Positions 4,039 to 40,910 are shown, counted from the first letter of the stretch. The stretch is DNA of 64,000 bases from Candidatus Thalassarchaeaceae archaeon (GCA_029940695.1 JAPYUP010000004.1:9998-73997); one strand, 5' to 3'. A program made the numbers and translations. The notes: a model not told the origin generated them from the letters alone.

Positions 4039-4070
4039 AATGCCACCTTTGCTCGGTCAAATCGATTCGC

Positions 4071-5789: not shown

Positions 5790-5818
5790 TTCTGTTCGGC
5801 TCCTGTAGCACCGCGTGT

Positions 5819-5838: not shown

Positions 5839-5881
5839 CTAGGGGCGTCGCATTCAAGGGGATGAGGCCAATAGACATACG

Positions 5882-7891: not shown

Positions 7892-7893
7892 TG

Positions 7894-22155: not shown

Positions 22156-22257
22156 GGTGATGGAGCGCCGTTCGGACATAGAGGCTTAGATTGGGGTGAT
22201 GGCTAATCACCAAGACCTTGGAAAAGCGTGTGATTGAGGCATGATTAAGGAGTGATT
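22156..22257. promoter_or_regulatory. Cluster of TGAT-core repeats in the divergent promoter region
   Basis: GGTGATGG occurs at 22156-22163 and 22195-22202. A hairpin ggtgat-ggcta-atcacc spans 22195-22211. Three (G/A)TGATT copies at 22230, 22241 and 22252 are spaced exactly 11 bp apart, just upstream of the MBL gene start. Confidence 0.35.
22160..22178 (-). promoter_or_regulatory. Conserved 19-nt upstream element, copy 1 (sense strand TGTCCGAACGGCGCTCCAT)
   Basis: 18 of 19 nt are identical to 62847-62865. It begins 40 nt upstream of the giant gene's start codon at 22120. An ATAAAT TATA-like box (22147-22152) lies between the element and the start. Confidence 0.5.
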
Positions 22258-23096: not shown

Positions 23097-25658
23097 CTAC
23101 TTTCCCATTACCGCCCGATGCACTGAGTTCTGGACCTCCCTCATCCTATCCACAGCCCCCAGTTCCCTGAAAAGCGAGAGCGAGCGTTGGAGATATTGCA
23201 TTCGCTGTGAGCGATCGGGCTCGACCGCTCCCAGACGGGCTAGCAGCTCACCCTGTAGCATTCTGAAATCGTTCCCCTCGGCCACGGCTAGGCCGTTGAG
23301 ATAGTGCTCACCGGCCTCCTCCCCTCTACCAGCATCTACCAACACTTGTCCTAGCAGCATCTCGACCTCCACCGCGCTTCTTGGGTCATTGAGGGTGGAG
23401 AGTGTTTCCAAAGCCCCCGAGTAGTGATGGAGTGCAAGTTCGTTGTCAGAAATCTTAGCATAGAATCTACCTAGGACTGCTCTGGAGCGCGCGTGCAGGA
23501 AATCCTGATTGATGTCTTTGGTGTTTTCAAAGGCCGCAAGAGCGTGCTCCCTAGCCCTGTCTAATTCTCCCATCTCAATGAAGGCAGAAGCTAGCCTGAT
23601 TCTGGCATCATTGAGTTCGGGATCATCCTCAAGTTTCAACAGATCCTCGACATTGCTATAGACCTCGAGTGCGCGTCTGGCATCCCTCCTTCTTCTGAAG
23701 ATGTGCCCCATGTTGTTGTATGAACGCGCCGCTCCTACCGCATCGCGAATGTCTTTGTGGGTTTGGATCTGGAGGGCCTTGCGGTGAAGTTCAAGCGCGT
23801 CATCCATTGCCCCTCTTTTCACGGCAATGTCAGCTCTAGCAGAGAAGAGGCGGGCTAGTTCAGGACTGATTTTCCTCCTTCCGACATGCCTAGCAGCAGC
23901 GTCGTATTCGATCTCTGCTTCGTCCCATCTCCCCTGAATAGAGAGGATGTCTCCCTTTAGTTCCCTTATCAGTCCCCAACTCTTTGCGTCAAAGTCGTCC
24001 CTATCGAGGGTGTTCAATATTGAGAGGAGTTCCGTATGGCCGGCACTCACTAGGCTATGGCCCTCTGAAAGAAGGACTTCAGCTAGACCCTCATCGTCTC
24101 CGGTATGCCTAAGGTGATGAATAAACTCAATTCTATCGGCCGCGTTGTCGTTCTTATCCCGGTACCAACTTACGGCAGTCGAATGCAGTTCCTTCCTAAG
24201 TTCGTCGTCCATCGCACGCATCAAGAACTCCCTAACGAGGTCGTGGACGTCGTAGTTTTCGGCGTCAGACTGGCGGGCTAGGCCTTTCTCGACAAGTTCG
24301 TCGAGGAGGTCAGTACCCCCTTCTACTCGCTTGACCGCCTGTATTGGTACAGGTTCGCGAAAAACAGCAATTGCGCCGAGAAGGCGTTTTTCTGCACCAG
24401 AGAGGCGGCTGAAAATCTCCTGTTCCACGAAAGCCTCTAGAGTGGCGTGGAAGGTATCAGCAACATTACCTCTGTTGATGAGCTCGAGAATGAGGGGGTG
24501 CCCTCTGGAAAGATCATAAATATTGGAGAATTGTTCCTGATTCAATTTTGGCATCGCTGTCAAAATCTGCTTACTGGAATCCTCATCTAACCCCTGAAGA
24601 GGCATCACTAAAGTGACAATATTACCAGTACTGTCAGACTCGGGAACGACCATTCTGAATGAGCGGGAGAACATTACTAGGCCCACTTCCCTCAGATTGG
24701 AAATCCTCAAAGTGAGCTCACGAAGAATTGTGAACAGGGTCTCGTCACCCACCTTGTGGAGGTCGTCTATCACTATCAAGGAAGGAGATTCGGAGAGGCC
24801 GGATTCAATCAGGTTCACTGCCAAGGTAGGCTGAGGGACAGGAGTGGAGTCCAGATAGTCGGAGAGGTCGTTGTGACCTATCGCCGACAGCCACTCAGCA
24901 CATGCCTCGAGAAAGGCACGTGACCCCTCCCAATCCTGGCACCTGTGGTACAGGAGGTTCCTACGATGAGTGAATCTGTCCAATATTTTTGTCGATAGGG
25001 CGGTCTTCCCGATTCCCGCAATCCCAGGAAGTAGGATTGTGCCGGATTTGGCCTCGAGTAGATCCGCCATCACATCGAGTTCCTTCGTCCTTCCATAGAA
25101 TCGGCGGGTTCTTGGTAGGTCGTTGAGATAGGAAATGAGTTGTTTTTCTATGTGCTTGGATAGGTCCCTCTCAATGAGATCCGATGTGAGCCCCGAGAGG
25201 TCTATGGTGCCCGAGTCATCCATGTAGCGGAGCAGGTCGACATGGCGAAGGGGTAAGTCTGTCTCCTCCAATGCTTCAGAGAGAGAAGTTGATTCGGAGT
25301 GACCGTCAGGGTGTATAATCCTGACGAGCTGCTCGGATACCTTAGTCCACACCTCATCGGCTACATTTGCTCCATCTTCGGTTAGGAAGTATGCCTTACG
25401 CTTCCTAGAGACGCCAGTGACGTGGGCTTGACGCTCGATGAGATGACCGGACTCCTTCATTCCAGAGATTGCCCTAGGGACATTAGACCTAGCTATCGCC
25501 ACGGCATTTGCGATTCCCATCTGTGAAAGTGCGAATGGAACTTCGACCTTGTCACCGTAGTCCATATAGTCGCGAAGATGCAGAAAAATTCGCTCTTGGA
25601 CCCCTGGACGAGTTGTAGACATCGTGGCCATGGTTTCGCAGCCCACATCTCCACTCAA
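23097..25658 (-). CDS. STAND-type P-loop NTPase with an N-terminal winged-helix DNA-binding domain and C-terminal TPR repeats
   Basis: The N-terminus LSQMGIANAVAIARSNVPRAISGMKESGHLIERQ is wHTH-like. Walker A is LLPGIAGIGKTALS and Walker B is LIVIDDLHKV. The C-terminal ~300 aa are TPR-like helical repeats (ARSYNNMGHIFRRRRDARRALEVY...). The start is ambiguous (TTG 25658, ATG 25631 or ATG 25622). Confidence 0.75.
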   Translation of the reverse strand: MSGDVGCETMATMSTTRPGVQERIFLHLRDYMDYGDKVEVPFALSQMGIANAVAIARSNVPRAISGMKESGHLIERQAHVTGVSRKRKAYFLTEDGANVADEVWTKVSEQLVRIIHPDGHSESTSLSEALEETDLPLRHVDLLRYMDDSGTIDLSGLTSDLIERDLSKHIEKQLISYLNDLPRTRRFYGRTKELDVMADLLEAKSGTILLPGIAGIGKTALSTKILDRFTHRRNLLYHRCQDWEGSRAFLEACAEWLSAIGHNDLSDYLDSTPVPQPTLAVNLIESGLSESPSLIVIDDLHKVGDETLFTILRELTLRISNLREVGLVMFSRSFRMVVPESDSTGNIVTLVMPLQGLDEDSSKQILTAMPKLNQEQFSNIYDLSRGHPLILELINRGNVADTFHATLEAFVEQEIFSRLSGAEKRLLGAIAVFREPVPIQAVKRVEGGTDLLDELVEKGLARQSDAENYDVHDLVREFLMRAMDDELRKELHSTAVSWYRDKNDNAADRIEFIHHLRHTGDDEGLAEVLLSEGHSLVSAGHTELLSILNTLDRDDFDAKSWGLIRELKGDILSIQGRWDEAEIEYDAAARHVGRRKISPELARLFSARADIAVKRGAMDDALELHRKALQIQTHKDIRDAVGAARSYNNMGHIFRRRRDARRALEVYSNVEDLLKLEDDPELNDARIRLASAFIEMGELDRAREHALAAFENTKDINQDFLHARSRAVLGRFYAKISDNELALHHYSGALETLSTLNDPRSAVEVEMLLGQVLVDAGRGEEAGEHYLNGLAVAEGNDFRMLQGELLARLGAVEPDRSQRMQYLQRSLSLFRELGAVDRMREVQNSVHRAVMGK

Positions 25659-25682
25659 GAATGTTGGTAGAAGTCGGGTGGC

Positions 25683-28600
25683 TCACTTGGGGTCATGGTA
25701 ATCGGGATCTGGTGCCCATTCTTCTTTGGCGGGGTCCCACAACCACCCCGGGTGGTCCTCGTGTTGCTCTAACTGCAAACTATCATCCACGATTGCAGAT
25801 GGAGTGGAATCGGAGGATTTTGCCCAAGCATAGGGGTCGTCGGGCTCCTCCAGTTCTGCTGAGAATGCCACAGGAGATTTCTCGGACTCATCTTCCTCTT
25901 CCTCGATTTCGATGAGGAAGTAGGCTAGAGCGCCTAGCAGCACTATTACAAACACGCCTCCAAATACAATTCCGCTCCAGTTCGTTCCCTCTGATTCTGG
26001 CTGCCCCAAATGAATGCGATTTCCAAAGGATAATTCGCCGCTGTAGCTGAACTGGGGGATGACGGAGGTACCTTGGATTCTCGAGGCTGGGATGCCGAGT
26101 TCCCAAGTTCCGTCCCCCGTCACGATGGTGTTGTTGACGGATAACCCACCAATGAGGACTGAGACCTGCTTGCCCGGGAGGCCGACTCCCGAATACAACA
26201 TAATTCCGTCCACTTCGACCCAACTCTGCTCCGGAGGTTGTATTGAAAACTGAATGGGCACGACAATGAAGGAAACTGGTAGTGAATTGACCTTTGAGTT
26301 AAACGAGTCGGTTGCGATGAAAATCACATCGTTAAGCGTCCAAGAGTCCATGTCTGGGTCATAGAAGAACATATCCGCAGGGTTGTAGTGGGCTATACCA
26401 TCACCCCCTACACTAATCACGATGGCAAAGTTGTCGTCGGTGGCACCGGATGTGTCGTTGAACACAGAGATATACTGGATGTCTCCGTCAGAGTCGCTGA
26501 AGAAATCCAACAGATCGATATTGGCAGTGGTACACCTATTGGCAGAACTTGACTCAGTGTCGCAGAATAGCGTAATCTCGCTGAGCCATTCAGCTGGATC
26601 GAACACAGGCTGGTTGTTATCGGCGTCAGGGGGGTTGTCGGCAGTAATACCAACCTCTGCCCAACCGCTGAAATCCAATCCATCATATGACCTAATCCTG
26701 ATTAGGTAGTCGGAATCGTGCCGTAGTTGGGTGGTGTCCCACTCAATTTCCCATTCGCCATTAGTCGAGAATTCGTTGGTAGAGGCGTAGTGGACGGTGA
26801 TGAAGTCATTGGAGACATCCTTAACCTCCACATCCACCCTAGTTACTTCACCATCGAAGTCCCTGGCTACTCCGCTGATGATCGAACTCTCGGATACCGG
26901 AATTCGAGAGTTCGTCTGGGGCTGGTTGACACTAATGGTCGGTTGGCTGTTGGAGTTGTCTATGCTCAGTGTAAGTACCACTGGCTGGCATTCGTCGATG
27001 ATGCCGTCGCAGAAGTCGGAATCGGATGCCCAAGCGGTAAATGTGAAGGTGGCGAGCTCTCGGGGTTGGCCACTGAAATCCCATTCCCACTCCCAACTGC
27101 CATCGGCGTTAGATTGGACTGGAGTCGTGACTTGGAAATTCGGGCCCTCTATCAGGATATATATCAGTCCAATGTCCTTGTTGCACTCCGAAGGGCAACC
27201 ATAGGGATCCTGAGCCATCCCCACGAACTGCACGGAGCCTCCGTCATGCGAGGAAAACGAACTCGGAGAGGTTATGAAAATCGTAGGGGGCAGTGTGTTG
27301 AGCTTGAAGGTCTTGAAGATTATTGGGCTGTAGTCGATTCCATCGAAGGCACGGAACTCGAAAGTGTAGTCGCCCTCCCCTGCCATGCTGCTCATATCGA
27401 AGGCGTAGTACCAGGAACTGAATGGTCGATTGGTTTTAGTGACCATGCCCTCATCCAATCCACTGGTATCGACTGCAAAACCGGCATCCTCCCATGCGTT
27501 GGTGAACGGATCCTTGACCTGGATTGAGTGGACGTAGCCGCGTTGGTCCCACTGCGCTAGTTGGTTGGTAGCGTAGCTGTTCGCAAGTTGGCCATCGTGC
27601 GCGCTGCCTGTAATGTTGACGATTCTGCGATAGGAATGGCCGTTATCTTGCGTCACCGTCACCGTCGGAGCGAGGTTTTCTAGATTGACAGTTTCTTGGT
27701 AGGAGCTATCCACGAGAGTGAACTCCCCACGATGGTAACCGGAGCCGAACTTGTAGGCGGTGAATCTGTAGAGGGACATTTCTCTCGTGCCCGCTGAGTA
27801 GTTGCAGTCGGAGTCACCTGTATCTAAGGTGAGATCGCCATCGTTGTCGATGCCATCCGAACATGAGTCCTCGTACTCGTCATCTGCAAAGCCATCGGGA
27901 TTGTCACCACCCCCGAGCCCTCTGAAGTCAAGGTGGAAGTTGGATGGAAGGGAAATCCAAGGGGTGAATCCGTCGGATTCTGTTTTGATAGAATAGAGGT
28001 CGTTACCTAGAGCGTCCTCGACGATTAGCAGCGTATCGGTGACCCTCTCCCCTTTGATCAGCGTCTGGAACCTTACTAGCTCAGCCCTGCTGACCTGAAC
28101 CGCGTAGTGAGTCGGCTGGGTGGCAATCTTGACTTTGGACAGGTCGAGATTAGACAGGTTGGCGAAGGTGAACACGGTGGAGTTGTTGTCCATGTTGAGC
28201 GCGAGGGGGAAGTTGCGCGGAGTCATGTTGGCGCAGTTTGCGCAGTTCTTGACGGGAGTGGGTGATATCCGACCCTGGAAGCCGTTTGCTGGCCATGCTT
28301 CCTGATCTTGCCAGGCCAAGCGCACGGGAAATTCCCCGGAAGGGGGGCTTGGAATGTACTCGGACTGAACGGTGACGGCGCTCTTAGAGACGTTGTACGT
28401 CATTTCGGCCCCGTTCCACGTGTTCTGGGAAAAGAAGCCGAGGGTGCCAAATTGATCCGCTTCGGAGTAACCGCTGTCGAAGTTTCTCAACACGGCCCCT
28501 GTCTTGGCGACGTTGAAGACGTTCCTCTGGATGTCAAGCAGCGAGCCGACAGATCTGATGCCATCGGCAGAGCCGCCGGCGTTGACGACGTTGTCGTACA

Positions 28601-30014
28601 TCGTCACACCGGTCACGAAGGCGTGAATAGCGGGGCAAGTGAAGTCACCGCCCCAGTAGGTATTGCTGCTGCACGCGCCGGCCCCCTGCGTAGAGATAGT
28701 GTTGTTCGCTAGGAAGACCCGGGATGCCGAGGCCTCGGACCGGGTGTACCTTCCCGCCACGATTGGTTCCGTTCCAGTCTCGAAGATGGTGTTGTTCTCC
28801 GCGACCACGTCGAAGGAGCCGCGCAGCCATAGCCCGTTGTATCCCCCAATCGGACCAATCTCATTGTTGTGGAGGGTCGCGGTGCTGGAATAGACTGTGA
28901 TGCCAGAGGCTTGTGAGGCGCCCTCGATGTCGTTGTTGGTCAGCGTGGCCAGAGCGCCGCTGTAAAGCGTAATTCCGCTGCCTTGCACGGTCGTGATAAC
29001 ATTGTTCGAAATCTCAAAGTCGTAGTAGACCGAGCCTATGGACTTCTTGCCGTTGATGTCGATGCCGTTACAGTTGACGCTTGCAGTGGAGTTGGTGACG
29101 CTACCTGCGGATGTCCTGAGGCTGAAGCCGAAGTCACCGTCAGTGATTTCGGCATTGTCGATCTCTATGAATGACTTCTCGGCCCAGATGGCAGCACGGC
29201 CGCGGTCCCGGGTCCCACAGCCGTTGTTGGTACTGGAGAGCGTGATATCGCTGAGGGTGAAAGGGGTTATGGAGGACCCCGAGGAGTAAATCTGTAGGGC
29301 TGGACCGACAATACTCCTGCTGGCATCGTTGCCTACTACGAAGGTGCCGCCGATAAAAGAGGGTTGGGCGAGATCGGTGGTTAGGACGCTGCTAGAGTTG
29401 ACATCCATGAACTCGAGGTTGATCAAGGTCGGGCTCGCACCATCGAGAACTAAAGCCGCGTAACGGAACTCGCTGACCGCAGTGACGTAGTATGGAACTC
29501 CCCAAGGGCCATCGAAGGTGACGTGCCTCATTCCCGTCTCCGATAGGTCGATGCTGTTCCTCATCAGCACCCCTTCGTTGCAGGATGGGTCGTCGATCCA
29601 GATTTCCTGGTTGCCCTGGGATATACCCCAGCACTCGCCCCTAGCACTCGAGTTGAGCGGCTCTTCCCACCTGAGGGTTATCTTCATCGCAGAGTCGGCA
29701 TTGCTGCTGCTGCCGCACGAGATGACGCCGGCGCAGATGCTGCCTCGGACGTCCAGATGCGTTCCATTGGGGAAGGTGATAGTAGCGCCCGCTTGGATAA
29801 TGAGCTTGGCACCCGGGGCAATCGTCACGTCTCCTGTCAGTGTGTGCGTTCCAGCCCAAGTCTCGGTACCCGTGATGGTACCGGAGGTGGTCTCGTTGGA
29901 CGCGCTAACCGGATGGGCTGGTAGCGTTAGTGAGAGTAGGACGCTTGTCAAAAAGAGCGCAACGAGAGCAATGGAGCCGGCCTTACCACTCCGCGCCATA
30001 GACCCGGGCTCCAT
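25683..30014 (-). CDS. Giant surface protein (1443 aa): signal peptide, right-handed parallel beta-helix (PbH1) repeats, Ig-like modules, C-terminal TM anchor and an acidic cytoplasmic tail
   Basis: SIALVALFLTSVLLSLTLPAHPVSA signal. PbH1-like repeats (NNVITTVQGSGITLYSGALATLTNNDIEGASQASGITVYSSTATLHNNEI). TM helix GIVFGGVFVIVLLGALAYFLIEI followed by EEEEDESE...HPGWLWDPAKEEWAPDPDYHDPK. Many N-x-S/T sequons. Confidence 0.85.
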   Translation of the reverse strand: MEPGSMARSGKAGSIALVALFLTSVLLSLTLPAHPVSASNETTSGTITGTETWAGTHTLTGDVTIAPGAKLIIQAGATITFPNGTHLDVRGSICAGVISCGSSSNADSAMKITLRWEEPLNSSARGECWGISQGNQEIWIDDPSCNEGVLMRNSIDLSETGMRHVTFDGPWGVPYYVTAVSEFRYAALVLDGASPTLINLEFMDVNSSSVLTTDLAQPSFIGGTFVVGNDASRSIVGPALQIYSSGSSITPFTLSDITLSSTNNGCGTRDRGRAAIWAEKSFIEIDNAEITDGDFGFSLRTSAGSVTNSTASVNCNGIDINGKKSIGSVYYDFEISNNVITTVQGSGITLYSGALATLTNNDIEGASQASGITVYSSTATLHNNEIGPIGGYNGLWLRGSFDVVAENNTIFETGTEPIVAGRYTRSEASASRVFLANNTISTQGAGACSSNTYWGGDFTCPAIHAFVTGVTMYDNVVNAGGSADGIRSVGSLLDIQRNVFNVAKTGAVLRNFDSGYSEADQFGTLGFFSQNTWNGAEMTYNVSKSAVTVQSEYIPSPPSGEFPVRLAWQDQEAWPANGFQGRISPTPVKNCANCANMTPRNFPLALNMDNNSTVFTFANLSNLDLSKVKIATQPTHYAVQVSRAELVRFQTLIKGERVTDTLLIVEDALGNDLYSIKTESDGFTPWISLPSNFHLDFRGLGGGDNPDGFADDEYEDSCSDGIDNDGDLTLDTGDSDCNYSAGTREMSLYRFTAYKFGSGYHRGEFTLVDSSYQETVNLENLAPTVTVTQDNGHSYRRIVNITGSAHDGQLANSYATNQLAQWDQRGYVHSIQVKDPFTNAWEDAGFAVDTSGLDEGMVTKTNRPFSSWYYAFDMSSMAGEGDYTFEFRAFDGIDYSPIIFKTFKLNTLPPTIFITSPSSFSSHDGGSVQFVGMAQDPYGCPSECNKDIGLIYILIEGPNFQVTTPVQSNADGSWEWEWDFSGQPRELATFTFTAWASDSDFCDGIIDECQPVVLTLSIDNSNSQPTISVNQPQTNSRIPVSESSIISGVARDFDGEVTRVDVEVKDVSNDFITVHYASTNEFSTNGEWEIEWDTTQLRHDSDYLIRIRSYDGLDFSGWAEVGITADNPPDADNNQPVFDPAEWLSEITLFCDTESSSANRCTTANIDLLDFFSDSDGDIQYISVFNDTSGATDDNFAIVISVGGDGIAHYNPADMFFYDPDMDSWTLNDVIFIATDSFNSKVNSLPVSFIVVPIQFSIQPPEQSWVEVDGIMLYSGVGLPGKQVSVLIGGLSVNNTIVTGDGTWELGIPASRIQGTSVIPQFSYSGELSFGNRIHLGQPESEGTNWSGIVFGGVFVIVLLGALAYFLIEIEEEEDESEKSPVAFSAELEEPDDPYAWAKSSDSTPSAIVDDSLQLEQHEDHPGWLWDPAKEEWAPDPDYHDPK

Positions 30015-30056
30015 CAGGGCGATTTAACCGTAGGGTATTATCGAGCCACTGGTGGC

Positions 30057-31295: not shown

Positions 31296-31339
31296 TGACC
31301 CTCGTGTTGCTGAGAGTCGCCTCCCATATCACTCTGTGT

Positions 31340-34300
31340 TCAGAAGGGGGCTCTCGGCCTTCTCCCAGTCCGGCGGGTCAGAGACCATAGTGCGAGTGCG
31401 AGCATGAGCAGCAACAGGTAGGTAATCCACCCGAGCACGCCTTCCTCAGCCTCTGACCATAGTTGCGCCTCCTTCACGCAGACTGATTCTCCTTCCGCTC
31501 CCTCTGTGCCACAAGCCTTCAAATCGTCTTCGTCATTAAATCCGGGGGGAATGATTTCGAATAATATGTAGTACTTGTTCGGAGTGGTGAAGTTACTGAA
31601 GTCCATTGGGATGTAGAATGCCGAAGTGCCTTGCTCAGGGATGTCACTCACTGCAGTCGAGTTCACCCCCGTGATTGACGTGCATTTGATGTCGACACAC
31701 AACGTCGCCCTCAAAGTGACATCCTTTGCAATGACATGCCCCTCATTTACCACTTCCACTACGTAAGTGGTCTTCTGGCCCACGGCAGGGTTCCCGCCAC
31801 CCTGAAGTTGGATTGTGCTTCCGTGGATCGAGAGAGCAGGAGAGTCTCTGAGGAGTGAAATTTGGTAAGTGTAGGAGTTGTTGTCGGTGTCCGACACAGT
31901 GAAGTCGATCGTGTACTCAAGGAGCTGTTCCTCCTCCTCGCCAGTGTAAGAGAGGGCCAAGGTCGTAATGCCCTCCGAGAACGGTGAGACGGGCTGTCCC
32001 TGAGGCCCCCCCAGATCCCAGTTTTCTGGGGATTGATAGTCGAAACTCAGGAATTCGTCACTGTTTCCTAGGTTCTGGAATGGTATCTGGATTTCTAGGT
32101 GTTTTTCATCTGGGCTGAAGTAGGTAGTGTCGACAAAATCTCCGGTTAAATCAAATCCGGAGAATTTGGGTACCGTCACGGATAGACTGTGCTCAGTGGA
32201 ATATCCCCCAGCGGTCGAGAACATGACCAGGATGGTGTGACCTATTTCGAAATGGTGGGCATGGCTCCTGTTTGCTGGAGTCACCCTTACTCTGAAGTTG
32301 TCTATCACCTCAGCAGTATCGAGGCCCATCTCGAACGATGCCGTACTGTTCCAACTCCCAGATTCGTTCTCGAACTCCACAAGCCATAGATTACCATCGG
32401 TTCCCAGGACAGTGCCAACTATGTCATACGTGTCGAGGGGATTGTGCCCTGAGTAATCGATGCGCAATGTGAACTCGGCGGGAGAATATTCGCAGTCGGC
32501 CTCGGCTTCGCAGCTAGAGTCTAGTTCTAAGTTGACGGCGTTCTCTCCAACGGTGGAGATCCCTATGTCCTGCTTCGGAATTAGTTCTAGGTTCAATGTC
32601 TTGAGGGGGCTGTCCTGACTGGCCCTAATTGTGACGCCTTGACCGCCCGAGTATGACATGTTCCTGCCTCGTTGCTCTACCTCGAAGTCACTAGATGCGT
32701 CTATTTGTCCGGTGGGCAACAACATCTCGAGGGTGCCATCCCCACTCAATTGCTCGGACCATGACATCCCCATGCCGATAAAAATCACTAGGTCATAGTC
32801 ATCTATCTCCGATAGAGAGAGCGATGCCCCGTCATAGTCCAGCCACTCGGTGTCTAGGAATAGCTTGCCACCGATGGAGAGTTCCGAATCTACGGCACCC
32901 CCATCGACATCGGCGTCTAGCAGATCCACAGCGACTAGGTATGAGTCCCCCTCCGGGGAGTCGACAGTGACATAGACAATCCATCTTCCAGGCTCCACTG
33001 AGGCAGTCCACTCGCCTGTCCACCCATCCGCTTCGTTCCCAACCTTATCTGGAACAACCCGATCCCTAGCGATTCCGTGTGCGGGAATCAGCACAATGTC
33101 CCAATCACCGTCAAATATCCATTCGTCAGAAATGTATGAGACGGTTCCAGAAACTTCGACTGAGCCAGCAGTAATCTCGATATTCTCGGCTTGGGCGGAT
33201 TCTCCTAGGGTGACGAAAACTGATTCAGTGGCAAAGCCGGGACTTTCCACGGTGACGTTCCAAGCGCTGCCGGACGGTAAGTAGATTGCCCAATCGCCGT
33301 TATCATCAGTCGTCAACGAATAGTTGACCTCTTCACCGGATGACAGGTTCACAAGATTGGATGCAATCGTAACCGAGACATTGGACAGACCCTCTCCGAA
33401 GCCTGGCATTTCGTCGTCGTTTAGATCCCAGTAGACATTGCCGCTCATCTCGACGAGTCTCTGCACAGTCAGATCGACGGTGTGATTGACGCCGACCGTG
33501 ACGCCTGATTCGATTAGAGATGTGTTCTCGATGACCCATCTCACGCCCTCGTTGTCAGTCTGGTTCAGTTCCACGTTCCACATTCCTGGAGTGGGCCTAA
33601 TCACGATAATCTCCAAGAAGCCAGAGGACTCTGCTGTGAAGGAGCCTAAACCGTCCTGTGAGGTGAACTTGAGCTCCATCTGGTTGAGGCTGTCACCCGA
33701 ATAGTCCTCAGAGAGGATGATGGAGACCTCAGCCAGCTCAGAGGTCCGGAAATATGCTCGAGTACCGGCAGTAACTTGGGACACGCTGATCAGGCGACGG
33801 AGGCCTTCGAACACGCCTGAACTGGTTTCAAACTCGTGAACAATCACTATCCAATCGCTCTCGGGCAAGTATTCCACAACCCTGCCTTCCTCGTTAGTGA
33901 GGAAAGTTTGAATCCAGCCGTTTTCGGTATCAACGAACACGACCTCTTGAGCGACTAGGAGACTGTCACTCTCGTTCCTGAAAGTAATGTTTACGAGCCA
34001 TAGGGGCTCGAAGCCAACCGACCTCTCGATAATCGATGGGTCCATGCCCACTTGAAACACCTCGTTGAGGTCGTAGAGAGTGTCAAACGGCTCATCGGCC
34101 GAGGCATTGGCCCTCTCAATGACAATCCTGTACCTGCCCGGTTCCAACGAAATCTCGGCCCTACCAGTGGAGACCCATTCATCACCGTCCGTGGCGACTT
34201 CGTAACCCGCACCGTTGGCTTCTAGTGACTGGATGGTGAAGGGATACCTCACTGCCGTGCCATTGGAGACGTTGTTGTCCCGATAATGATCGACGAAAAG

Positions 34301-37300
34301 ATCGATTAGGACCGTGCTGTTCTCCTCCGGGTAGACTAGAAGTTCAAGTTCCACGATGGCGGATGAATTGAGCTCCTCAATCTCGGTGCTGGAGCCCATT
34401 TCCCCGGCGTCCAGAACGAAGGTCCAGTTGCCTAGGGGCAGTATCAAGTCAAAGTGGCCATCGGGACCAACGGCCTCCCTCCAAACTCCGTCTGTGTTCC
34501 CGTCTAAGTTGTTGGCGACGACATAGACCGGTTCCCAATCCTTGAAGGCATCAGTGTAGGTGTTCCCGGGCCGGTTCAGACCAACAAAACCACTTGTCAT
34601 GGCCCCCTGTACGACAGTCAGCGAAACGTCACTCATATCCTGTGCCACAGTGAAACGGGTTCCGTTAGAGTAGAACCCGTCCACGCCCATGAGTACTTCG
34701 ATTGTGGCGTCCACTATCACGTCCACGGGGAGTATCACGCTGAAGTTGCCTTCTCTATCAGAAGTAGTCGAGAGAGTGAATCCATCCCACTGGAACACGA
34801 TTTCCTCGTTTCCCACGACTTGCTCAAAGATGCCGGTTTCCAGCTTTTCACCATGAGAGTAGTACACTGTGCCGTTAACTGTGTGGCTGACTTGGAAGCT
34901 GAATGAGTCAGACAAGTCATCCGAACCGACTTCGATACGTTGCCAGAGCTGCTTATCGTTGTCCAGGGTGTGGTTGAGTATCCAAATGCCGTAGGAAAGC
35001 TCGACTCTGTACGAATTGGACACCGAGTCATAGATTGCCAAGACTGGGCTCATCGACTCGTTTTCGGGCCGCAGGCTGATCTCGAGGTCCGAAACGGGAG
35101 AGTCGCCATCGAAGAGGGTGAAGGAGAGATCGGACGTATCTGGGATTGGGGAGGGGAAGGTGGCTACGAAATCCTCCTCGGGGAGGAAGGAGTAGGTCTG
35201 AGTTACCTCCGGGAACCCGTCGTCGTCGATGTCGACCTCGGCGATGTAAGTTCCGGGAATGATGGGTCCAATCTGGAACGCGCCATTATCGTCAGGAACG
35301 ACAATGCAGGGAGGGGCCACGGTCTGGGAACACTCCATAGTGGCATTCTCGGCCGTGTCGTTGTTCGGGAAGATGGAAATCGATCCATCAAGTGGTTCTC
35401 CTGATTGGTCGACTAAGTTGCCCTTTATGCCCCCTCCAGAAACTGATAACTGCACAGGAGCCTGAATGGCATTCAGTCCTATTAGGAAGTTGCTCTCCAG
35501 CCCCACTATTGTCCCGTCACTGAATTCGATTGAGACGTCGTACTCGCCTGGTAGGGCATCGACGAAGTGGAAGGTGCCTGGTTGGACCATCGGCCCGCTG
35601 AATATCCCGGTGCCAGAGAACATGCCTGTTCCATTGATGGTGCCATACGAAGTGAGTGGTTGCGTGGTGTCCGTCTCGAAGGTGCCCGCGCCCACGAACG
35701 TAGCTTGGTCGAGGGTTCTGGAGAACAGGCTCGTACCGTCAGCAGTGAACCTGCCTGAGGCATTTACAGTGCCGTTCAATAGGTAGTCGCCATCATCGAG
35801 CACGCAAACGACAGTATCCCGAGGGATTTCGTTATCGGGGCACGCAAGAGCCTCCGTGCTGTCTAGAAGTTCCCCTATCAGCGTGCCCTTGCCGGTGAAT
35901 ATTCCCTCACCAGTCATGCTATGATTGTTGAAAATGGACTGGGTATGTGTTCCTGTGAAGTCAGTGACTGTCACGACGCCCTCAGTTGCGGCGATCCCCT
36001 CGCCAGTGAAGATTACCTGACCAATACCGCTGAACTCCAACGACTGACCCACTACCGTGCCGTTTGAGGTAAGAGCCACGTAGGGCTCTATGGTGACCTC
36101 GTCGGAGGAAGGGGTCAGAACCACTTGAGAGCCAATGACCGGATCCGCATCGAAGTCTAGCCCGCCGGACCACGTCAAGACTCCGGTTGCAGTGGAGGGC
36201 TGGACTGTGATGGAAGCCTCTATTCGAGATTGGCCGTTGCTGTGGCCATCCGAACCAGAGACGTTGACGATGGTCTCGGAGAGCCATGTTGAGCCCGAAA
36301 CGTTGCCCAGTATACCCGTAATCGGATTGACTGTCCTCTGTTCGTTGTGCTCCGTGAACAGCTCATACATCGAATTGCCGACGTCAGAAGCCATAATCGA
36401 CGAGCGGGCGGACTCCAAATCAGGTTCCCCAGAAAAGGCGGAGATTCGGATCTTGCCTGCTGGGACCGTGAAGGAATACTCTCCGTTTTCGTTAGCTTGA
36501 GTATGGCCGATGGGTATCCAAAACGTACGCCCATCTCCGTCGATGACGCTACCATTCTCATCAGGTTCCTCCTCGCCGCTAAATGCATCTCTCTCGATTA
36601 GAATTCGAGCGTTTGGAACTGGTCCGATGCCCTCTAGCTCAACCGTTCCTTCCACGGTAGCGCCGCTGTAGTACTTGAGAACCTTAACAATCCTGTTGGA
36701 ATCATAAATGGTGCCACATAACTGGCTAATCTTCACACCGGTCTCGTTGAGCTCGCATTCGCTGCTGTCGTACCAGTTGGAGATGACGAAGTGATTCATC
36801 ATTGCACCGGGAAGGGCGAAGGCATTCTCCAAGTAAGAGCCAGGAGAGCCTGTGATTTTCGTCTGCTGAGGGTTGAGCCAGACGGAGGGCGTCTCGGCAT
36901 CACCGGGAATCCCGAGTGTAGAGGATCCATAACCCACGTAAATCCTCGCGACCATGGTCTCAAAGAACTCCGGCTGGTGCTGGTAGTCGATGTCGATCAT
37001 CCTGATGACCTCAGAGGGGTCTGAGGATGCTCCCGAGGTCTGTCTGACTAAGTCATCTAGGTACTCTGCCTCGTATTGTGCCTGAGTCCTTGGGATAATC
37101 GGGCCATCGCCCCTCTGGGTCTGGTACATCGTTGAGATATATGACTCCATATCGAGCCCTGAGAGACGAGTAGGGGCATGGAAGATGCCGGTCGTCTGCC
37201 CGCGGTGGTATTCGTAGTCGTCGTAGTAAGAGCCACCAAGTGGGAAGAGTCGGTTGTCGACTGCGAAGTATCGAATCTCGTTGTTGCGGACCACTTTGCT

Positions 37301-40300
37301 GCCCAGTGGGGAGTCGTAGTCGGAGACCTCGTACTCGATGGAGGTGATACCTTGGTAGATGTCTACTAGGGCTTCCATATCAAAGGCTGTGACGAGGAAG
37401 GCGCGCAGCAGCCCCAGCCTTGCGTTGTTTCTGTGCAGCCCCGTGGAGATGTCGTAGTAGTCATCGATTAGGTCCTTGGTGTACCTGTATCCCCCAATGT
37501 CGTAGTGCGCTGGCTCACCCGTGTCTACCTGGGAGGAGGAGGCGCGGGTCTCGTTGAACAGGGACATGGCCTCGGACTGATTCGTGGTAGGGTCGCCGAC
37601 TTGGACACCATTCTCGAGAACGACCCAAACCTTTCCTATCTGAGGAAGACCATCACTCCCAAGCTGCTCCCCGTGGAGCAGTTCGACGTCGTTGTACACA
37701 GCTATGATCGCCATGGACCTGTTGAGGACGAACTCCCTGTTGTTGTTGGAGAGTATGGCCTCGAACTCCTTGACCTGCTCGGGCGTCATGTGGGCGTTGA
37801 GGGAGGCGAGGAAGTCCTCGCCGAGCTGCTGGGAATTGAACTTCCTATCGCCCTGTGCAAGAGTAACGATGAACATCGCTAGAGTGTCTTCTTGTCCTGC
37901 TGACAAGAGCATTCCACCACTGTTAGGGATTCCCGACTGGAAGTTGTCCGCGACCGTTGGGTGTTGGCCTGAGGCCAGAGCTTGGAACCCATAGTCCCAC
38001 CATGAGACGAACGCGGGACGCTCACTGAAACCTTGTTCCGAATCCTGCTCGGAAAGCCAATTGTACGCGTGGTTCCAGCCTTGGCTGTTGAAACTAGGGC
38101 CGAAAGTGCCCATGTACCAGAGTCCAGAGGCGTCGGGGCTGTACTCCTTGCTGTTCATCACGGAGAAGATGTTGAAGAAGTCCTCCCTGAAAATATCCGG
38201 GACGATGTCGTAGATGGCTAGGTCGACGTCGTAAGCCGATTCTTCCCCCCTGGGTATGCCTGAGTCGATCCCATAGGTAGTGTGCTGGGAGGTCACTAAC
38301 AGAAGCACGATAAGAATAACCGGAACTCCGGGACGAGACTTCGATGCAGGCCATATTGACCTGAATCGAGCTCTTGGGGTTCCAATGCCAGATCTCCTCC
38401 ACTCCTTGACGAACTCGGACGAGTTGGCACGGCTCCAAAGCATGGCGATTCCGATACCGCCAACCACCGCCATCGCCGGAGTTGCGTTGATGATGAACCG
38501 GCCAGCGGTCCATGCCATGTAAGTCGCAATAATTACCCACAGTCCCAGCAGCGTCAACCCGGACTTGTTCTTACGACTGCCCCGCCATAGTAGAAAGAAG
38601 CCGCATCCTATCGCTATCAGCGCGACCACAGGGCCGTAAGAGGCGAACAGCACACCACGACTGGGTGCCTGTGCCTCACCGATGGTGCCGAAGATCTTGT
38701 TCTTCGAGAAGTAGAATCCCCCTGTGAACAGGATGTCCCATCCGTCGTATACATCGGTGGCTTGGAGCAGGTAGAGGGCACCTAGAATCGTGCCGAACAG
38801 AGCTGTTCCGCTGATGACGACGAGCAGCCATGGCTTGTCTCTGAAGGAACTAGCAACCCATCCCATCGCGAACGTGAACCCGATGATGTAGAACATCGGC
38901 TGCATGCCGCTGGGTGCAAAGACCAGATTCAAGCCTGGCCATCCGTAGAACGGTAGTGGGAGGAGGATGGCGGTCATCATCATCTGAAGTGCGGCAGAGG
39001 TGAATTGGAGGCTGTCTCTGCCACGGAAGATGTTAATGGCAACTTGAACCGAATATGCGAGGAAGAGGATTCCGGGCCCATAGACGAATCCCTTCCAACC
39101 GAGTGCCATTATCGTGAATGCGATTCCAGACATCGTTGCGTTTGCCATCACTACAGGATTCTGCTTCCAGCTCTCCCTCATTCCAGCAATCAAGTAAAGC
39201 GGGTTCGGACTGGAAGATTCGAACAGTCTCTTGTGCTCGAGGCCGGCGAGAGCCCTTATCCAGAAGTAGAACGCCGTGGCTAGGAAAAGCATGGCGAACG
39301 AATCGTGATCGACCATAGCGAATGTCGACCTGCTAATGTGTCCAGGCATCAGCGCGATTAGCCATGCCGATATGATGCCGGCAGTCCTGCTGTGGACCCT
39401 AGTAGCAATACCTGCAATGGGTATGACGATGAGTGCGCCATAAATAGCAGGCAAGGCGGATACGCTCCACCAGACTGCCTGCTCTGAGGGAATCTCTAGC
39501 AGCCAGGATAGACCCAGTCCTCCAAGTGCGAGGGACCATGAGAACAGCGGTGGTCGGGGGTTTATTCCCCCAAGGGGATATGCCCTATCGTGATCGAAGA
39601 TGAGGTGGCTCCTCTCTGCGATGACGTAGTCGACGACCCTCTTCATGTACCATGGATCGGAACCCCCAGTCATGTCCCAGAGTCCCGTTCCCGACGCATT
39701 CATTGCAGGGATTACGTTCCATGCGGTTCTAACGGTTAGCGCAGTGACCAAGGCTAGGCCGACTAGGATCCCGTAGGAATTTGATTTCCACCAGATTCTG
39801 AAGCCACTTGGCTCCCTTTGGGGGGCGATGTCTCCGAAGACCCCTCGAGACGCGGCCATGATTCCGAAGAAATTTAGCCAGAACCCGACGAAGAACCACG
39901 AGGACGAGCCAATCAAGCCCCCTTCGTCGAGTGGGTACGGGAACTCGTTGCCGATCTCATGAAGATGGCCCATGGTGTACAACATCCAGTTTACCGCTAG
40001 CAACACACCGATAACGTGCCAACCCTCTGCTCGGAAGAAGGCATGCAATAGGATGGCCACGGTCGTGAATATCGCCCAGATGACTCCGAGATGGCGGGAC
40101 TCTGAGAACGCCTCGATGTCTCCAATCTGCCCCAACCAGACCAGTGGAATCAGTTGAACCACGAAGATGAGCACAGCGTAGATTATTGTCTCTCGACTGT
40201 GGGGGGGCGTAGGGATTACAGACATCATCGAGCCGGAGCCCACATTCTCAAATGTGCCCCTCAGAGCAATCATGACAGTAATTCCGAGTGCTATCGATGC

Positions 40301-40840
40301 AAACCAGAACGCGAAGAACGCAGAGCCGATTGCCTCTCTCTCGAAGTCTACAAACTGAGCAGTCGCAGCACCGTCGATAATCCCTAATCCTCCAGCGTAG
40401 GACGTTGCAAAATGCAGCCCCACAATAATGGATAGGAAGATGCTTGACTCTTCGAACCGCCTTGATTCTACTAGGTATCCTGTTACCGAACCAACCAAGA
40501 AAAACGTAGCGATGAACGAGTTGTCGAACATTGAATGGTCAAATGTGTTCGCCGCGAACGCGATTGCCAGCAGTCCGATTGACAGGGCCGAAACGCGGAG
40601 GCCTACAGAGGAGTTGAGTCTTAGCCAAGGGGACATTCTGCCAATGCATGCTGAGGCTAGGGCTGCTAGGGGAAGGGTCAGGGAACTGACAAAGTAGTCA
40701 TTGTCGATTGAGCGGCCCTCTATTTGCGAGAGTGCTAGGAAGAGCGTGGTCAGCATCGCAGTGATGGCGATTGGTGAGGCAAGTCCGGGGGGTCGGGGGG
40801 TGTCTTGGGATGCTTCGTTATCGGTTTCCATCACACCCAC
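31340..40840 (-). CDS. aglB: Giant fusion protein (3166 aa): extra N-terminal polytopic membrane block, then an STT3/AglB oligosaccharyltransferase core, then ~2000 aa of extracellular Ig/CarboxypepD_reg-like repeats, then a C-terminal TM anchor
   Basis: EL1-like GGSDPWYMKRVVDYV..FDHDRAYPLGGINPRPPLFSW. The catalytic motif SWWDYGFQ is at nt 37988-38002 (residues 947-951). CarboxypepD_reg-like GTVELEGIGPVPNARILIE...ENGEYSFTVPAGKIRISAF. The C-terminus is GWITYLLLLMLALALWSLTRRTGRRPRAPF. The frame is continuous, with a start at GTG 40840 or ATG 40831. Confidence 0.8.
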   Translation of the reverse strand: MGVMETDNEASQDTPRPPGLASPIAITAMLTTLFLALSQIEGRSIDNDYFVSSLTLPLAALASACIGRMSPWLRLNSSVGLRVSALSIGLLAIAFAANTFDHSMFDNSFIATFFLVGSVTGYLVESRRFEESSIFLSIIVGLHFATSYAGGLGIIDGAATAQFVDFEREAIGSAFFAFWFASIALGITVMIALRGTFENVGSGSMMSVIPTPPHSRETIIYAVLIFVVQLIPLVWLGQIGDIEAFSESRHLGVIWAIFTTVAILLHAFFRAEGWHVIGVLLAVNWMLYTMGHLHEIGNEFPYPLDEGGLIGSSSWFFVGFWLNFFGIMAASRGVFGDIAPQREPSGFRIWWKSNSYGILVGLALVTALTVRTAWNVIPAMNASGTGLWDMTGGSDPWYMKRVVDYVIAERSHLIFDHDRAYPLGGINPRPPLFSWSLALGGLGLSWLLEIPSEQAVWWSVSALPAIYGALIVIPIAGIATRVHSRTAGIISAWLIALMPGHISRSTFAMVDHDSFAMLFLATAFYFWIRALAGLEHKRLFESSSPNPLYLIAGMRESWKQNPVVMANATMSGIAFTIMALGWKGFVYGPGILFLAYSVQVAINIFRGRDSLQFTSAALQMMMTAILLPLPFYGWPGLNLVFAPSGMQPMFYIIGFTFAMGWVASSFRDKPWLLVVISGTALFGTILGALYLLQATDVYDGWDILFTGGFYFSKNKIFGTIGEAQAPSRGVLFASYGPVVALIAIGCGFFLLWRGSRKNKSGLTLLGLWVIIATYMAWTAGRFIINATPAMAVVGGIGIAMLWSRANSSEFVKEWRRSGIGTPRARFRSIWPASKSRPGVPVILIVLLLVTSQHTTYGIDSGIPRGEESAYDVDLAIYDIVPDIFREDFFNIFSVMNSKEYSPDASGLWYMGTFGPSFNSQGWNHAYNWLSEQDSEQGFSERPAFVSWWDYGFQALASGQHPTVADNFQSGIPNSGGMLLSAGQEDTLAMFIVTLAQGDRKFNSQQLGEDFLASLNAHMTPEQVKEFEAILSNNNREFVLNRSMAIIAVYNDVELLHGEQLGSDGLPQIGKVWVVLENGVQVGDPTTNQSEAMSLFNETRASSSQVDTGEPAHYDIGGYRYTKDLIDDYYDISTGLHRNNARLGLLRAFLVTAFDMEALVDIYQGITSIEYEVSDYDSPLGSKVVRNNEIRYFAVDNRLFPLGGSYYDDYEYHRGQTTGIFHAPTRLSGLDMESYISTMYQTQRGDGPIIPRTQAQYEAEYLDDLVRQTSGASSDPSEVIRMIDIDYQHQPEFFETMVARIYVGYGSSTLGIPGDAETPSVWLNPQQTKITGSPGSYLENAFALPGAMMNHFVISNWYDSSECELNETGVKISQLCGTIYDSNRIVKVLKYYSGATVEGTVELEGIGPVPNARILIERDAFSGEEEPDENGSVIDGDGRTFWIPIGHTQANENGEYSFTVPAGKIRISAFSGEPDLESARSSIMASDVGNSMYELFTEHNEQRTVNPITGILGNVSGSTWLSETIVNVSGSDGHSNGQSRIEASITVQPSTATGVLTWSGGLDFDADPVIGSQVVLTPSSDEVTIEPYVALTSNGTVVGQSLEFSGIGQVIFTGEGIAATEGVVTVTDFTGTHTQSIFNNHSMTGEGIFTGKGTLIGELLDSTEALACPDNEIPRDTVVCVLDDGDYLLNGTVNASGRFTADGTSLFSRTLDQATFVGAGTFETDTTQPLTSYGTINGTGMFSGTGIFSGPMVQPGTFHFVDALPGEYDVSIEFSDGTIVGLESNFLIGLNAIQAPVQLSVSGGGIKGNLVDQSGEPLDGSISIFPNNDTAENATMECSQTVAPPCIVVPDDNGAFQIGPIIPGTYIAEVDIDDDGFPEVTQTYSFLPEEDFVATFPSPIPDTSDLSFTLFDGDSPVSDLEISLRPENESMSPVLAIYDSVSNSYRVELSYGIWILNHTLDNDKQLWQRIEVGSDDLSDSFSFQVSHTVNGTVYYSHGEKLETGIFEQVVGNEEIVFQWDGFTLSTTSDREGNFSVILPVDVIVDATIEVLMGVDGFYSNGTRFTVAQDMSDVSLTVVQGAMTSGFVGLNRPGNTYTDAFKDWEPVYVVANNLDGNTDGVWREAVGPDGHFDLILPLGNWTFVLDAGEMGSSTEIEELNSSAIVELELLVYPEENSTVLIDLFVDHYRDNNVSNGTAVRYPFTIQSLEANGAGYEVATDGDEWVSTGRAEISLEPGRYRIVIERANASADEPFDTLYDLNEVFQVGMDPSIIERSVGFEPLWLVNITFRNESDSLLVAQEVVFVDTENGWIQTFLTNEEGRVVEYLPESDWIVIVHEFETSSGVFEGLRRLISVSQVTAGTRAYFRTSELAEVSIILSEDYSGDSLNQMELKFTSQDGLGSFTAESSGFLEIIVIRPTPGMWNVELNQTDNEGVRWVIENTSLIESGVTVGVNHTVDLTVQRLVEMSGNVYWDLNDDEMPGFGEGLSNVSVTIASNLVNLSSGEEVNYSLTTDDNGDWAIYLPSGSAWNVTVESPGFATESVFVTLGESAQAENIEITAGSVEVSGTVSYISDEWIFDGDWDIVLIPAHGIARDRVVPDKVGNEADGWTGEWTASVEPGRWIVYVTVDSPEGDSYLVAVDLLDADVDGGAVDSELSIGGKLFLDTEWLDYDGASLSLSEIDDYDLVIFIGMGMSWSEQLSGDGTLEMLLPTGQIDASSDFEVEQRGRNMSYSGGQGVTIRASQDSPLKTLNLELIPKQDIGISTVGENAVNLELDSSCEAEADCEYSPAEFTLRIDYSGHNPLDTYDIVGTVLGTDGNLWLVEFENESGSWNSTASFEMGLDTAEVIDNFRVRVTPANRSHAHHFEIGHTILVMFSTAGGYSTEHSLSVTVPKFSGFDLTGDFVDTTYFSPDEKHLEIQIPFQNLGNSDEFLSFDYQSPENWDLGGPQGQPVSPFSEGITTLALSYTGEEEEQLLEYTIDFTVSDTDNNSYTYQISLLRDSPALSIHGSTIQLQGGGNPAVGQKTTYVVEVVNEGHVIAKDVTLRATLCVDIKCTSITGVNSTAVSDIPEQGTSAFYIPMDFSNFTTPNKYYILFEIIPPGFNDEDDLKACGTEGAEGESVCVKEAQLWSEAEEGVLGWITYLLLLMLALALWSLTRRTGRRPRAPF

Positions 40841-40891
40841 CAGAACACGTAGCCAAAGGCTCAGCAGCGCGGCGACCTGAACGCTTGTTTT

Positions 40892-40910
40892 AACCGTTCG
40901 TAGAACGGTT
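40892..40910. promoter_or_regulatory. Perfect 8-bp hairpin/palindrome between the purD stop and the aglB-fusion start
   Basis: aaccgttc-gta-gaacggtt. It overlaps the TTTAACCGT 9-mer (40889-40897), which also occurs upstream of the beta-helix gene (30023-30031). Confidence 0.3.

Follow-up and report, generated by a model that had tools for sequence, protein, structure and literature searches.

The stretch analysed here, referred to as the window, comprises 64,000 nucleotides of Candidatus Thalassarchaeaceae archaeon (GCA_029940695.1, JAPYUP010000004.1:9998-73997) and contains a block of four co-directional genes, named A, B, C and D. Gene A encodes a giant protein of the AglB/STT3 family of oligosaccharyltransferases (OST), B a membrane-anchored S8 subtilase, C a beta-helix surface protein, and D a STAND ATPase with a tetratricopeptide repeat (TPR) sensor. 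Each of them shows a Pfam match above the curated cut-off, and all four functions assigned by an earlier sequence-only reading of the window hold, as do its coordinates and gaps for the four open reading frames (ORFs), which were reproduced exactly. The annotation of the four genes is secure; functional coupling between them is what we infer. The interpretation favoured here, to which we give about an even chance, is a conserved envelope neighbourhood in which B, C and D form a probable trio and A serves as the general OST.

Gene content and protein architecture

The four genes are separated by gaps of 44 (A/B), 42 (B/C) and 24 (C/D) nt in ORF coordinates, or 47, 57 and 51 nt if B, C and D begin at the ATG codons conserved among orthologues (31292, 29999 and 25631, respectively). 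Upstream of A are the genes encoding PurD and CDP-archaeol synthase (CarS), and downstream of D there is a convergent gene encoding a protein of the metallo-beta-lactamase (MBL) fold, followed by an ORF of 1,908 aa with TSP3 repeats. The stop codons of D and the MBL-fold gene touch at 23096/23097, with zero bases between them. The flanking genes mark the organism as an archaeon, and it belongs to Poseidoniales (Marine Group II). The positions of the genes and of their main features are given in Table 1.

Table 1. Positions of genes, protein regions and putative transcription signals of the four-gene block, counted from the first nucleotide of the window.
Feature	Position	Strand	Description
Gene A	31340-40840	minus	giant AglB/STT3; 3166 aa from GTG; probable start ATG 40831
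Gene B	30057-31295	minus	S8 subtilase; 412 aa; probable start ATG 31292
Gene C	25683-30014	minus	beta-helix surface protein; 1443 aa; probable start ATG 29999 ('MARSGK')
Gene D	23097-25658	minus	STAND ATPase; 853 aa; probable start ATG 25631
A, N-terminal extension (residues ~4-345)	39806-40831	minus	~ten predicted membrane helices ahead of the first transmembrane helix of STT3
A, WWDYG catalytic motif (residues 947-951)	37988-38002	minus	invariant in orthologues
A, extracellular extension (residues ~1401-3130)	31451-36640	minus	fast-evolving, sequon-enriched, beta-sandwich
A, C-terminal transmembrane anchor (residues 3133-3157)	31370-31444	minus	followed by conserved basic tail RRPxAPF-COOH
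C, tail motif HPGWLWDxxxxEWxPDPxY (residues 1421-1439)	25698-25754	minus	cytoplasmic, conserved
A, promoter-like box AACGGTTAAAACA	40886-40898	minus	upstream of A
Palindrome AACCGTTC-TAC-GAACGGTT	40892-40910	minus	perfect 8+3+8; overlaps the A promoter box
A, 5' untranslated region hairpin AGCCTTTGGCT	40851-40861	minus	conserved; between promoter box and GGTG
C, TATA-like box GGTTAAAT	30022-30029	minus	22 nt before the conserved ATG of C
D, box AACATTCTTGA	25655-25665	minus	23 nt before the conserved ATG of D

Protein A shows a match to Pfam STT3 (PF02516; 45.7 bits, cut-off 24.5) at residues 394-795. The AlphaFold2 (AF2) model of residues 4-1200 (predicted local distance difference test, pLDDT, 70) contains about ten helices, then the long first transmembrane (TM) helix of STT3, the membrane core and an external domain of mixed alpha/beta structure. 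The top Foldseek matches of this model are the AglB of Archaeoglobus fulgidus (3wak/7e9s), STT3A/B and PglB, with a probability of 1.00 for 3wak, 7e9s, 6s7o and 5ogl. The catalytic motifs of OSTs are an Asp in the first external loop (EL1), DxD, TIxE/SVSE and WWDxG. Since the corresponding motifs of A (GGSDPWY, DHD, TIGE and WWDYG) are invariant in 23/23 orthologues, the enzyme is very likely active. The external-domain families PF22627 and PF18079 were not detected by Pfam in A, whose external domain is divergent and modelled with low confidence at residues 857-973. The score against the archaeosortase-associated STT3 subfamily TIGR04154 (161.2 bits) is below its cut-off of 450. In more than 20 species the A ORF is unbroken and ranges from 3155 to 3238 aa. 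It is split in three assemblies (L033 at 13642/13644, L009 at 2407/2408 and L020 at about 6810-7020), two of them assemblies of metagenome-assembled genomes (MAGs) and one a pilon-polished long contig, and these splits are probably frameshift errors, not gene fission.

Two regions extend the STT3 core of A. At the N-terminus, the helices from residues 18-37 to 306-328 precede the STT3 helix (residues 343-382) in the AF2 model. This domain shows no Pfam match, and a duplication of the STT3 membrane domain was rejected as its origin (hhalign probability 0.3%, no homology to the core); from its distribution, the ~ten-helix domain is specific to Poseidoniales. The distal extension (residues 1401-3130) contains 37 N-x-S/T sequons, against 14.6 +/- 3.4 expected from composition-preserving shuffles (z ~6.6), and carries CarboxypepD_reg-like and DUF11-like beta-sandwich signatures (Pfam). 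A hydropathy scan shows many TM segments within residues 1-800 and a single one at the C-terminal anchor. This last helix and the RRPxAPF tail indicate that the ectodomain of A, of ~2,270 residues, would be tethered to the membrane at both ends.

Protein B contains a Peptidase_S8 domain (PF00082; 133 bits, residues 108-394), in which the catalytic triad and the oxyanion Asn (D116, H153, S332 and N248) are invariant in 33/33 sequences. A single hydrophobic segment at residues ~54-87, ahead of the S8 domain, is positively flanked as in a signal-anchor and gives a type II topology with the S8 domain extracellular, which bears out the N-terminal anchor already proposed. A propeptide was not detected in B. 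The cytoplasmic N-terminus of ~50 residues is as conserved as the catalytic domain and shows the pattern LMPEPEDPxLLTxVDxxAPGYPGxxYGxSDxEA. The best NCBIfam match of B is mycosin (TIGR03921), with 94.1 bits, below the cut-off of 278.75. Subtilases are among the protease/peptidase genes listed as transcribed in Marine Group II (PMC9723583).

Protein C matches Beta_helix (PF13229; 52.2 bits, cut-off 25.9) and NosD (25.1 bits, cut-off 23.6), and Big_7 just under its cut-off (22.9 against 24.1). Hydropathy shows a signal peptide and a TM segment at residues 1343-1374, as in a type I membrane protein. From the N-terminus, the protein contains the signal peptide, a right-handed beta-helix (~40-545), low-confidence linkers, a tandem of Ig/FN3-like domains (~640-1120), the TM segment and an acidic tail. 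The AF2 model has a pLDDT of 71, with short regular strands at residues 40-545 at a pLDDT of ~85-93, and Foldseek finds only generic Ig/FN3 arrays (A2M, contactins) and no functional clue for the beta-helix. Of its 17 sequons, 12 are held in position in at least 24 of 30 orthologues. The tail consists of a variable acidic linker after the TM segment and two motifs, DPYAWAK and, downstream of it, HPGWLWDxxxxEWxPDPxY. Both motifs are conserved in MGIIb and in MGIIa, the two families of Marine Group II examined here, and HPGWLWDxxxxEWxPDPxY is nearly invariant in 41 MGIIa orthologues; the surrounding linker varies and overall identity of C between the two families is ~40%, but the tail motifs are kept nonetheless. 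The most divergent orthologue of C (5644-9938 in L031, ~45% identity) contains 44 sequons and has the terminus TM-WKFSGRRSSMPF, which resembles the RRPxAPF end of A.

Protein D shows matches to AAA_16 (34.0 bits, cut-off 32.6), TPR_12 (52 bits, cut-off 30.1) and TPR_MalT, and its residues 172-488 match PDB entry 6mfv, the TPR-sensor STAND protein PH0952 (E = 2.6e-30). In 29/29 sequences the two Walker motifs are unchanged: GIAGIGKT for Walker A (25002-25025) and VIDDLH for Walker B. The protein contains a probable winged helix-turn-helix (wHTH) at ~20-100, a nucleotide-binding oligomerisation domain (NOD) and a C-terminal TPR sensor at ~550-850, and no TM segment was found in it by the hydropathy scan. 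Its score against the MalT equivalog NF003420 is 45 bits (cut-off 537), and relatives of D are named PadR or MarR fusions in JGI. STAND NTPases with TPR sensors include defence proteins, and D could accordingly be an anti-virus sensor of the Avs type with incidental neighbours. This explanation is extremely unlikely: PADLOC returned only a partial match of 17 bits (E = 4e-4) and no system, the effector position is occupied by the probable wHTH and not by a nuclease or protease, and D, a single-copy gene in syntenic position, is better conserved than the rest of the block, unlike the genes of variable defence islands.

Two other ORFs of the window encode proteins with more sequons than their composition predicts. 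The ORF at 53860-62808 (minus strand), of 2,982 aa, has 87 N-x-S/T sites against 29.4 +/- 4.8 expected (z ~12) and is the most sequon-enriched protein of the window. The ORF at 11179-12321 (plus strand), of 380 aa, has a hydrophobic N-terminus and nine sequons against 2.6 expected (z = 4.1), and probably encodes another secreted glycoprotein.

Gene order in Poseidoniales and context of giant AglB genes

Gene B was used to scan one genome per GTDB species, which gave 32 loci, all of them of Poseidoniales/Thalassarchaeaceae (Marine Group II, MGII, mostly MGIIb). The order PurD-A-B-C-D-MBL (opposite strand)-1,908-aa ORF was found in all 32 loci wherever the contig extends. Contigs of MGIIa (Poseidonia-type; L033, L036 and L038) retain A-B-C(-D); the AglB of L033 shares 72.5% identity with a protein assigned to Poseidonia sp., the name that L038 also bears. 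The sequence-only reading had staked its proposal on the conservation of this order, and the order is indeed kept in the loci of the 32 Thalassarchaeaceae representatives and in the MGIIa contigs. Over both families, A-B-C-D is held in 36 of 37 related genomes, and B-C-D is contiguous, with no rearrangement inside, in all 37. The rearrangements seen all fall at the borders of the block: in the MGIIa family three genes are added between D and the MBL-fold gene and CarS is inverted, and in L037 (MGIIa-type) 5.8 kb are inserted between A and B, while B-C-D remain together. The L037 insertion (2755-8627) is the sole break of A-B adjacency in the 37 genomes; it is gene-poor and contains ORFs of 212, 76 and 66 aa and a 242-aa FG-GAP_2 ORF.

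The four proteins differ in their conservation. In distant MGIIb loci, identity to the window is ~0.70 for the STT3 core of A, ~0.37 for its 350 N-terminal residues, 0.33-0.42 for its distal extension, 0.55-0.64 for B, 0.56-0.60 for C and 0.69-0.75 for D. With identities of 0.69-0.94, D shows the highest conservation in the block and is therefore its most constrained gene. Homologue searches with D and with an MGIIa C fragment gave only close relatives among the matches listed.

Homologues of A were sought with an exhaustive HMMER search of 1.84 billion cluster representatives (50% clusters), with residues 340-1400 of A as query. Among the 144 matches listed, 93 cluster representatives have at least 2000 aa and fall into two tiers. 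The Poseidoniales-type tier ranges from 3146 to 3228 aa, with the core beginning at residue ~340-390. The outgroup tier contains more than 80 representatives of 2,000-2,775 aa, with 29-38% identity to A, whose core is near the N-terminus (residues ~20-100) and which do not have the N-terminal extension; the two outgroup giants that are named come from MAGs of Thermoplasmata and Thermoplasmatota. In nearly all the giants listed, WWDYG is present and the C-terminus consists of a TM segment and a basic tail, and the extensions of the outgroup giants are weakly homologous to that of A. The two tiers and the weak homology of the extensions indicate that the giant AglB format is ancestral in the phylum and that the Poseidoniales added the N-terminal membrane domain. 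A is a member of a large class of AglBs of 2,000-3,200 aa in Thermoplasmatota, apparently undescribed, in which an intact catalytic core is combined with a beta-sandwich stalk and a C-terminal anchor. No description of giant AglBs, or of AglB in Poseidoniales or Thermoplasmatota, was found in the searchable literature, which is not proof of novelty.

Two features of these giants are reported apart. In P0341, P0354, P0359, P0368 and P0393, PGF-, PSFE- or FE-type motifs precede the last TM helix and resemble archaeosortase (PGF/PEF-CTERM) sorting signals. In all the giant Thermoplasmatota AglBs inspected (P0322-P0465 and A) the fourth position of WWDYG is Tyr, which according to a 2024 review (PMC11407970) is typical of TACK/Asgard AglB and eukaryotic Stt3 and variable in Euryarchaeota.

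In the outgroup contexts examined, giant AglB genes frequently have genes for further giant surface proteins beside them. The gene that follows the giant AglB directly in L039 (7827-10586) encodes a type II anchored protein with Beta_helix/NosD and CARDB/Big_1 (Ig-like) matches, of an architecture similar to that of C, with undetectable orthology. The distant AglB P0073 (L034/L035), of ordinary size, sits in a classical glycosyltransferase cluster.

The conserved arrangement could have arisen from inherited synteny, the block containing a general OST, a nutritional or housekeeping exoprotease, one surface protein of many and a regulator of some other process, which are unrelated in function and adjacent through the collinearity of compact genomes. 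Several observations agree with this explanation, and some of them also weigh against a functional neighbourhood. The synteny of the four genes is matched by that of PurD and CarS upstream and of the MBL-fold gene and 1,908-aa ORF downstream; because these housekeeping flanks are equally syntenic, the conserved order within Poseidoniales is weak evidence of functional coupling and may be inherited collinearity. Coding density is 96%, each gene shows a promoter-like box (see below), and subtilases belong to the proteases listed as transcribed in MGII (PMC9723583). The arrangement is absent from the outgroups examined: four outgroup giant AglB contexts (L039, L040, L041 and one other) contain no S8, C-like or STAND gene, and tblastn of outgroup giant AglB loci gave no homologue of B, C or D. 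However, the borders of the block show rearrangements (CarS inversion, three genes between D and MBL, insertion between A and B), and B-C-D not once in 37 genomes. From their conserved cytoplasmic peptides, B and C would be expected to have partners in the cytoplasm, and a TPR sensor of a peptide-binding type is the product of the gene next to them. In addition, the giant AglB of L039 directly precedes a surface protein with beta-helix and Ig-like domains. Inherited synteny with no functional link is on this evidence rather unlikely.

Promoter-like boxes and transcription units

All transcription signals described here were identified from sequence. Upstream of A, AACGGTTAWAACA is located ~55 nt before the ATG and is conserved in all MGIIb loci. 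The palindrome that overlaps the A promoter box is limited to the clade of the window (L002-L012 and L018), and only its right arm, the core box, is general. Between the box and the start codon there is a hairpin (AGCCTnnAGGCT), in which the sequence changes of other species preserve the stem, followed by a Shine-Dalgarno-like element of the GGTG/GGTGA type. Upstream of C, GGTTAAAT or variants of it are found at a fixed distance of 22-23 nt in most MGIIb loci, with a spacer of variable sequence, and this spacing matches the geometry expected of leaderless archaeal mRNA. Upstream of D, the box AACATTMTTGA lies 23-24 nt before the conserved ATG, and it is non-coding, since its TTG does not lie in frame in other species. 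B shows a Shine-Dalgarno-like GAGG in this genome and a TATA-like box in some species only.

Two other candidate signals were discarded. The palindrome GAGCCAC-CA-GTGGCTC just past the B stop, a possible operator or terminator, is not conserved in close relatives. The minus-strand copies of GGTTAWAW, a possible common operator, are confined in the window to the positions before A and C, but its total is 3 against 2.4 by chance, and the shared ACGG prefix does not extend to species in general.

These signals bear on the operon proposed by the sequence-only reading, a self-contained module that would make, glycosylate, process and regulate one surface structure. The four genes point the same way and lie close together, the three gaps between them were found free of terminator-like hairpins and T-tracts, the order is kept across Poseidoniales, and B has its GAGG element, all of which would fit a single transcript. 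Nevertheless, since the 29 main ORFs of the window lie a median of 41.5 nt apart (coding density ~96%), gaps of 24-44 nt are the norm of this genome and their tightness does not mark an operon. TATA-like boxes are found at leaderless spacing before the ATGs of C and D (22-24 nt, conserved) and, in some species, before B, and A has a conserved box and 5' untranslated region of its own. The conserved boxes and the baseline gaps together do not support a simple operon; the simplest reading of these signals divides the block into separate units, namely A (perhaps with B), C and D, between which some read-through may occur. Self-containment fares no better: the block has no glycan-assembly or flippase genes, the flanking PurD and MBL-fold genes are equally syntenic, 5.8 kb separate A from B in L037, and A, which looks like the ordinary AglB orthologue of the lineage, has orthologues and outgroup homologues in other contexts, including the four without S8, C-like or STAND neighbours. 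A single four-gene operon is therefore improbable.

An 18-nt element, GTCCGAACGRCGCTCCAT, is located at 22160-22177 and 62847-62864 (both minus strand), upstream of the TATA-like boxes of the 1,908-aa and 2,982-aa ORFs, whose proteins share repeat-level similarity only. The element also precedes the 1,908-aa orthologue in 21 other loci, where it is conserved. A CGAACGG core is common to this element and the A promoter, and five of the 22 CGAACGR sites of the window are intergenic. GTCCGAACGRCGCTCCAT may be the site of a common regulator of giant surface-protein genes.

Functional interpretation and comparison with known systems

A is probably the ordinary AglB of the lineage, acting as a general OST and not as a dedicated copy, and B, C and D plausibly form a functional trio. 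Three lines of evidence argue for the coupling of these genes: no genome examined has B, C and D apart; the products of A, B and C all act at the membrane or surface; and B and C, whose products carry conserved cytoplasmic peptides, adjoin the gene of a sensor of peptide-binding type. The STT3 core of A would transfer a lipid-linked glycan to N-x-S/T sites outside the membrane, and its sequon-laden beta-sandwich stalk, of ~2,150 residues, would be tied back by the C-terminal TM helix. C would display its beta-helix and Ig array at the surface through one TM anchor, leaving the conserved tryptophan-acidic tail in the cytoplasm. The active site of B is predicted to face the same extracellular space, where it would be placed to mature or shed C or the stalk of A. 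STAND ATPases bind an inducer through the sensor, switch from ADP to ATP and multimerise (PMC6468293). D would bind a cytoplasmic ligand through its TPR sensor, plausibly the peptides of B and C, which this region could read; an exchange of ADP for ATP and oligomerisation would follow, and the N-terminal winged helix would act on DNA. A, C and D would be expressed from promoters of their own, and B may be co-transcribed with A.

Besides the flanking synteny and the outgroup contexts, other observations weigh against the trio and its surroundings. The gaps between A, B, C and D are ordinary for this genome, and the promoter-like boxes that each gene would have weaken the coupling of B, C and D. 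C had been described as sequon-rich: its 17 N-x-S/T sites are present, but an enrichment is rejected, the count matching the expectation from composition (15.6 +/- 3.7 in composition-preserving shuffles, z = 0.4). The C orthologue of L031 does not have the tryptophan-acidic tail and ends in RRSSMPF. D had been described as a cytoplasmic STAND NTPase with a DNA-binding head; the first part stands on its Pfam matches and the absence of a TM segment, and the head is sub-threshold at the sequence level, with HTH_Crp_2 at 19 bits (cut-off 27) and PadR, HVO_A0261_N and SlyA weak. Finally, that the protease B acts on C or A and that the TPR of D acts on the tails are links that we infer.

A more specific proposal can be formulated, in which B, C and D would be a device that signals across the membrane, a kind so far undescribed in archaea. 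The C ectodomain would act as receptor or adhesin and B would shed it; the freed or re-positioned C tail, the N-terminal peptide of B, or both, would be the inducer for the TPR of D; and D would switch on A and the 1,908-aa and 2,982-aa ORFs, whose promoters share CGAACG-containing elements. In parallel, the stalk of A would be a structural, self-glycosylated part of the MGII envelope. The proposal as a whole is improbable.

Marine Group II includes some of the most abundant archaea of the plankton. To our knowledge, none of its members has been cultured and no description of their cell envelope exists. The locus provides candidates for the building and glycosylation of the MGII surface, with an AglB three times the usual size that would carry its own sequon-rich stalk anchored at both ends, and candidates for surface processing (the membrane subtilase) and sensing (the STAND regulator beside conserved cytoplasmic peptides). 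On its own, it opens no long-standing question. AglBs of giant size with a C-terminal anchor occur widely in Thermoplasmatota, with more than 90 cluster representatives of 2,000 aa or longer, and may interest glycobiologists.

Known archaeal AglB (A. fulgidus AglB-L, PDB 3waj/3wak/7e9s), STT3 and PglB show the same GT-C membrane core and external domain as A, with EL1 Asp, DxD, TIxE and WWDYG. Nevertheless, they have ~600-1000 aa and A has 3166 aa, since it adds the ~ten-helix N-terminal membrane domain and the sequon-rich stalk of ~2,150 aa, with a second membrane anchor at its end. The giant AglBs of other Thermoplasmatota, such as MFA5772382.1 ('carboxypeptidase regulatory-like domain-containing protein') and MEW5759581.1 ('STT3 domain-containing protein'), are closer to A and contain an STT3 core with WWDYG, a CarboxypepD_reg-type extension and a terminal TM helix with a basic tail. 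They differ from A in their size (2,000-2,800 aa), in having no N-terminal extension, in the PGF/PEF-like ends of some of them and, for the four whose contexts were seen, in the lack of S8, C-like or STAND genes nearby. In the canonical agl clusters of Haloferax, aglB is located beside genes encoding glycosyltransferases, epimerases and a flippase. Both those clusters and this block place AglB in an envelope-related neighbourhood, and here the glycan-assembly genes are missing.

The mycosin MycP, the membrane-anchored subtilase of type VII secretion, resembles B in being membrane-tethered with its active site outside and in being encoded beside its secretion or surface partners. Its anchor is C-terminal, whereas that of B is N-terminal (type II), and B is archaeal, with no type VII secretion genes nearby. 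The TPR of kinesin light chain binds tryptophan-acidic cargo motifs, which the C tail (GWLWD...EEWxPD) resembles next to a TPR gene; this is an analogy only and no homology is claimed. PH0952 of Pyrococcus horikoshii and MalT share with D the NOD with Walker A and B motifs, the arm and the TPR/SUPR sensor (PMC6468293), but MalT has a C-terminal LuxR-type HTH, whereas D has a probable N-terminal winged-helix head. Each part of the block is of a known kind, and the variants are unusual: a doubly anchored AglB of 3,166 aa with an orphan ten-helix domain, a propeptide-less type II subtilase with a conserved cytoplasmic peptide, and a surface protein with a tryptophan-acidic tail beside a STAND-TPR regulator.

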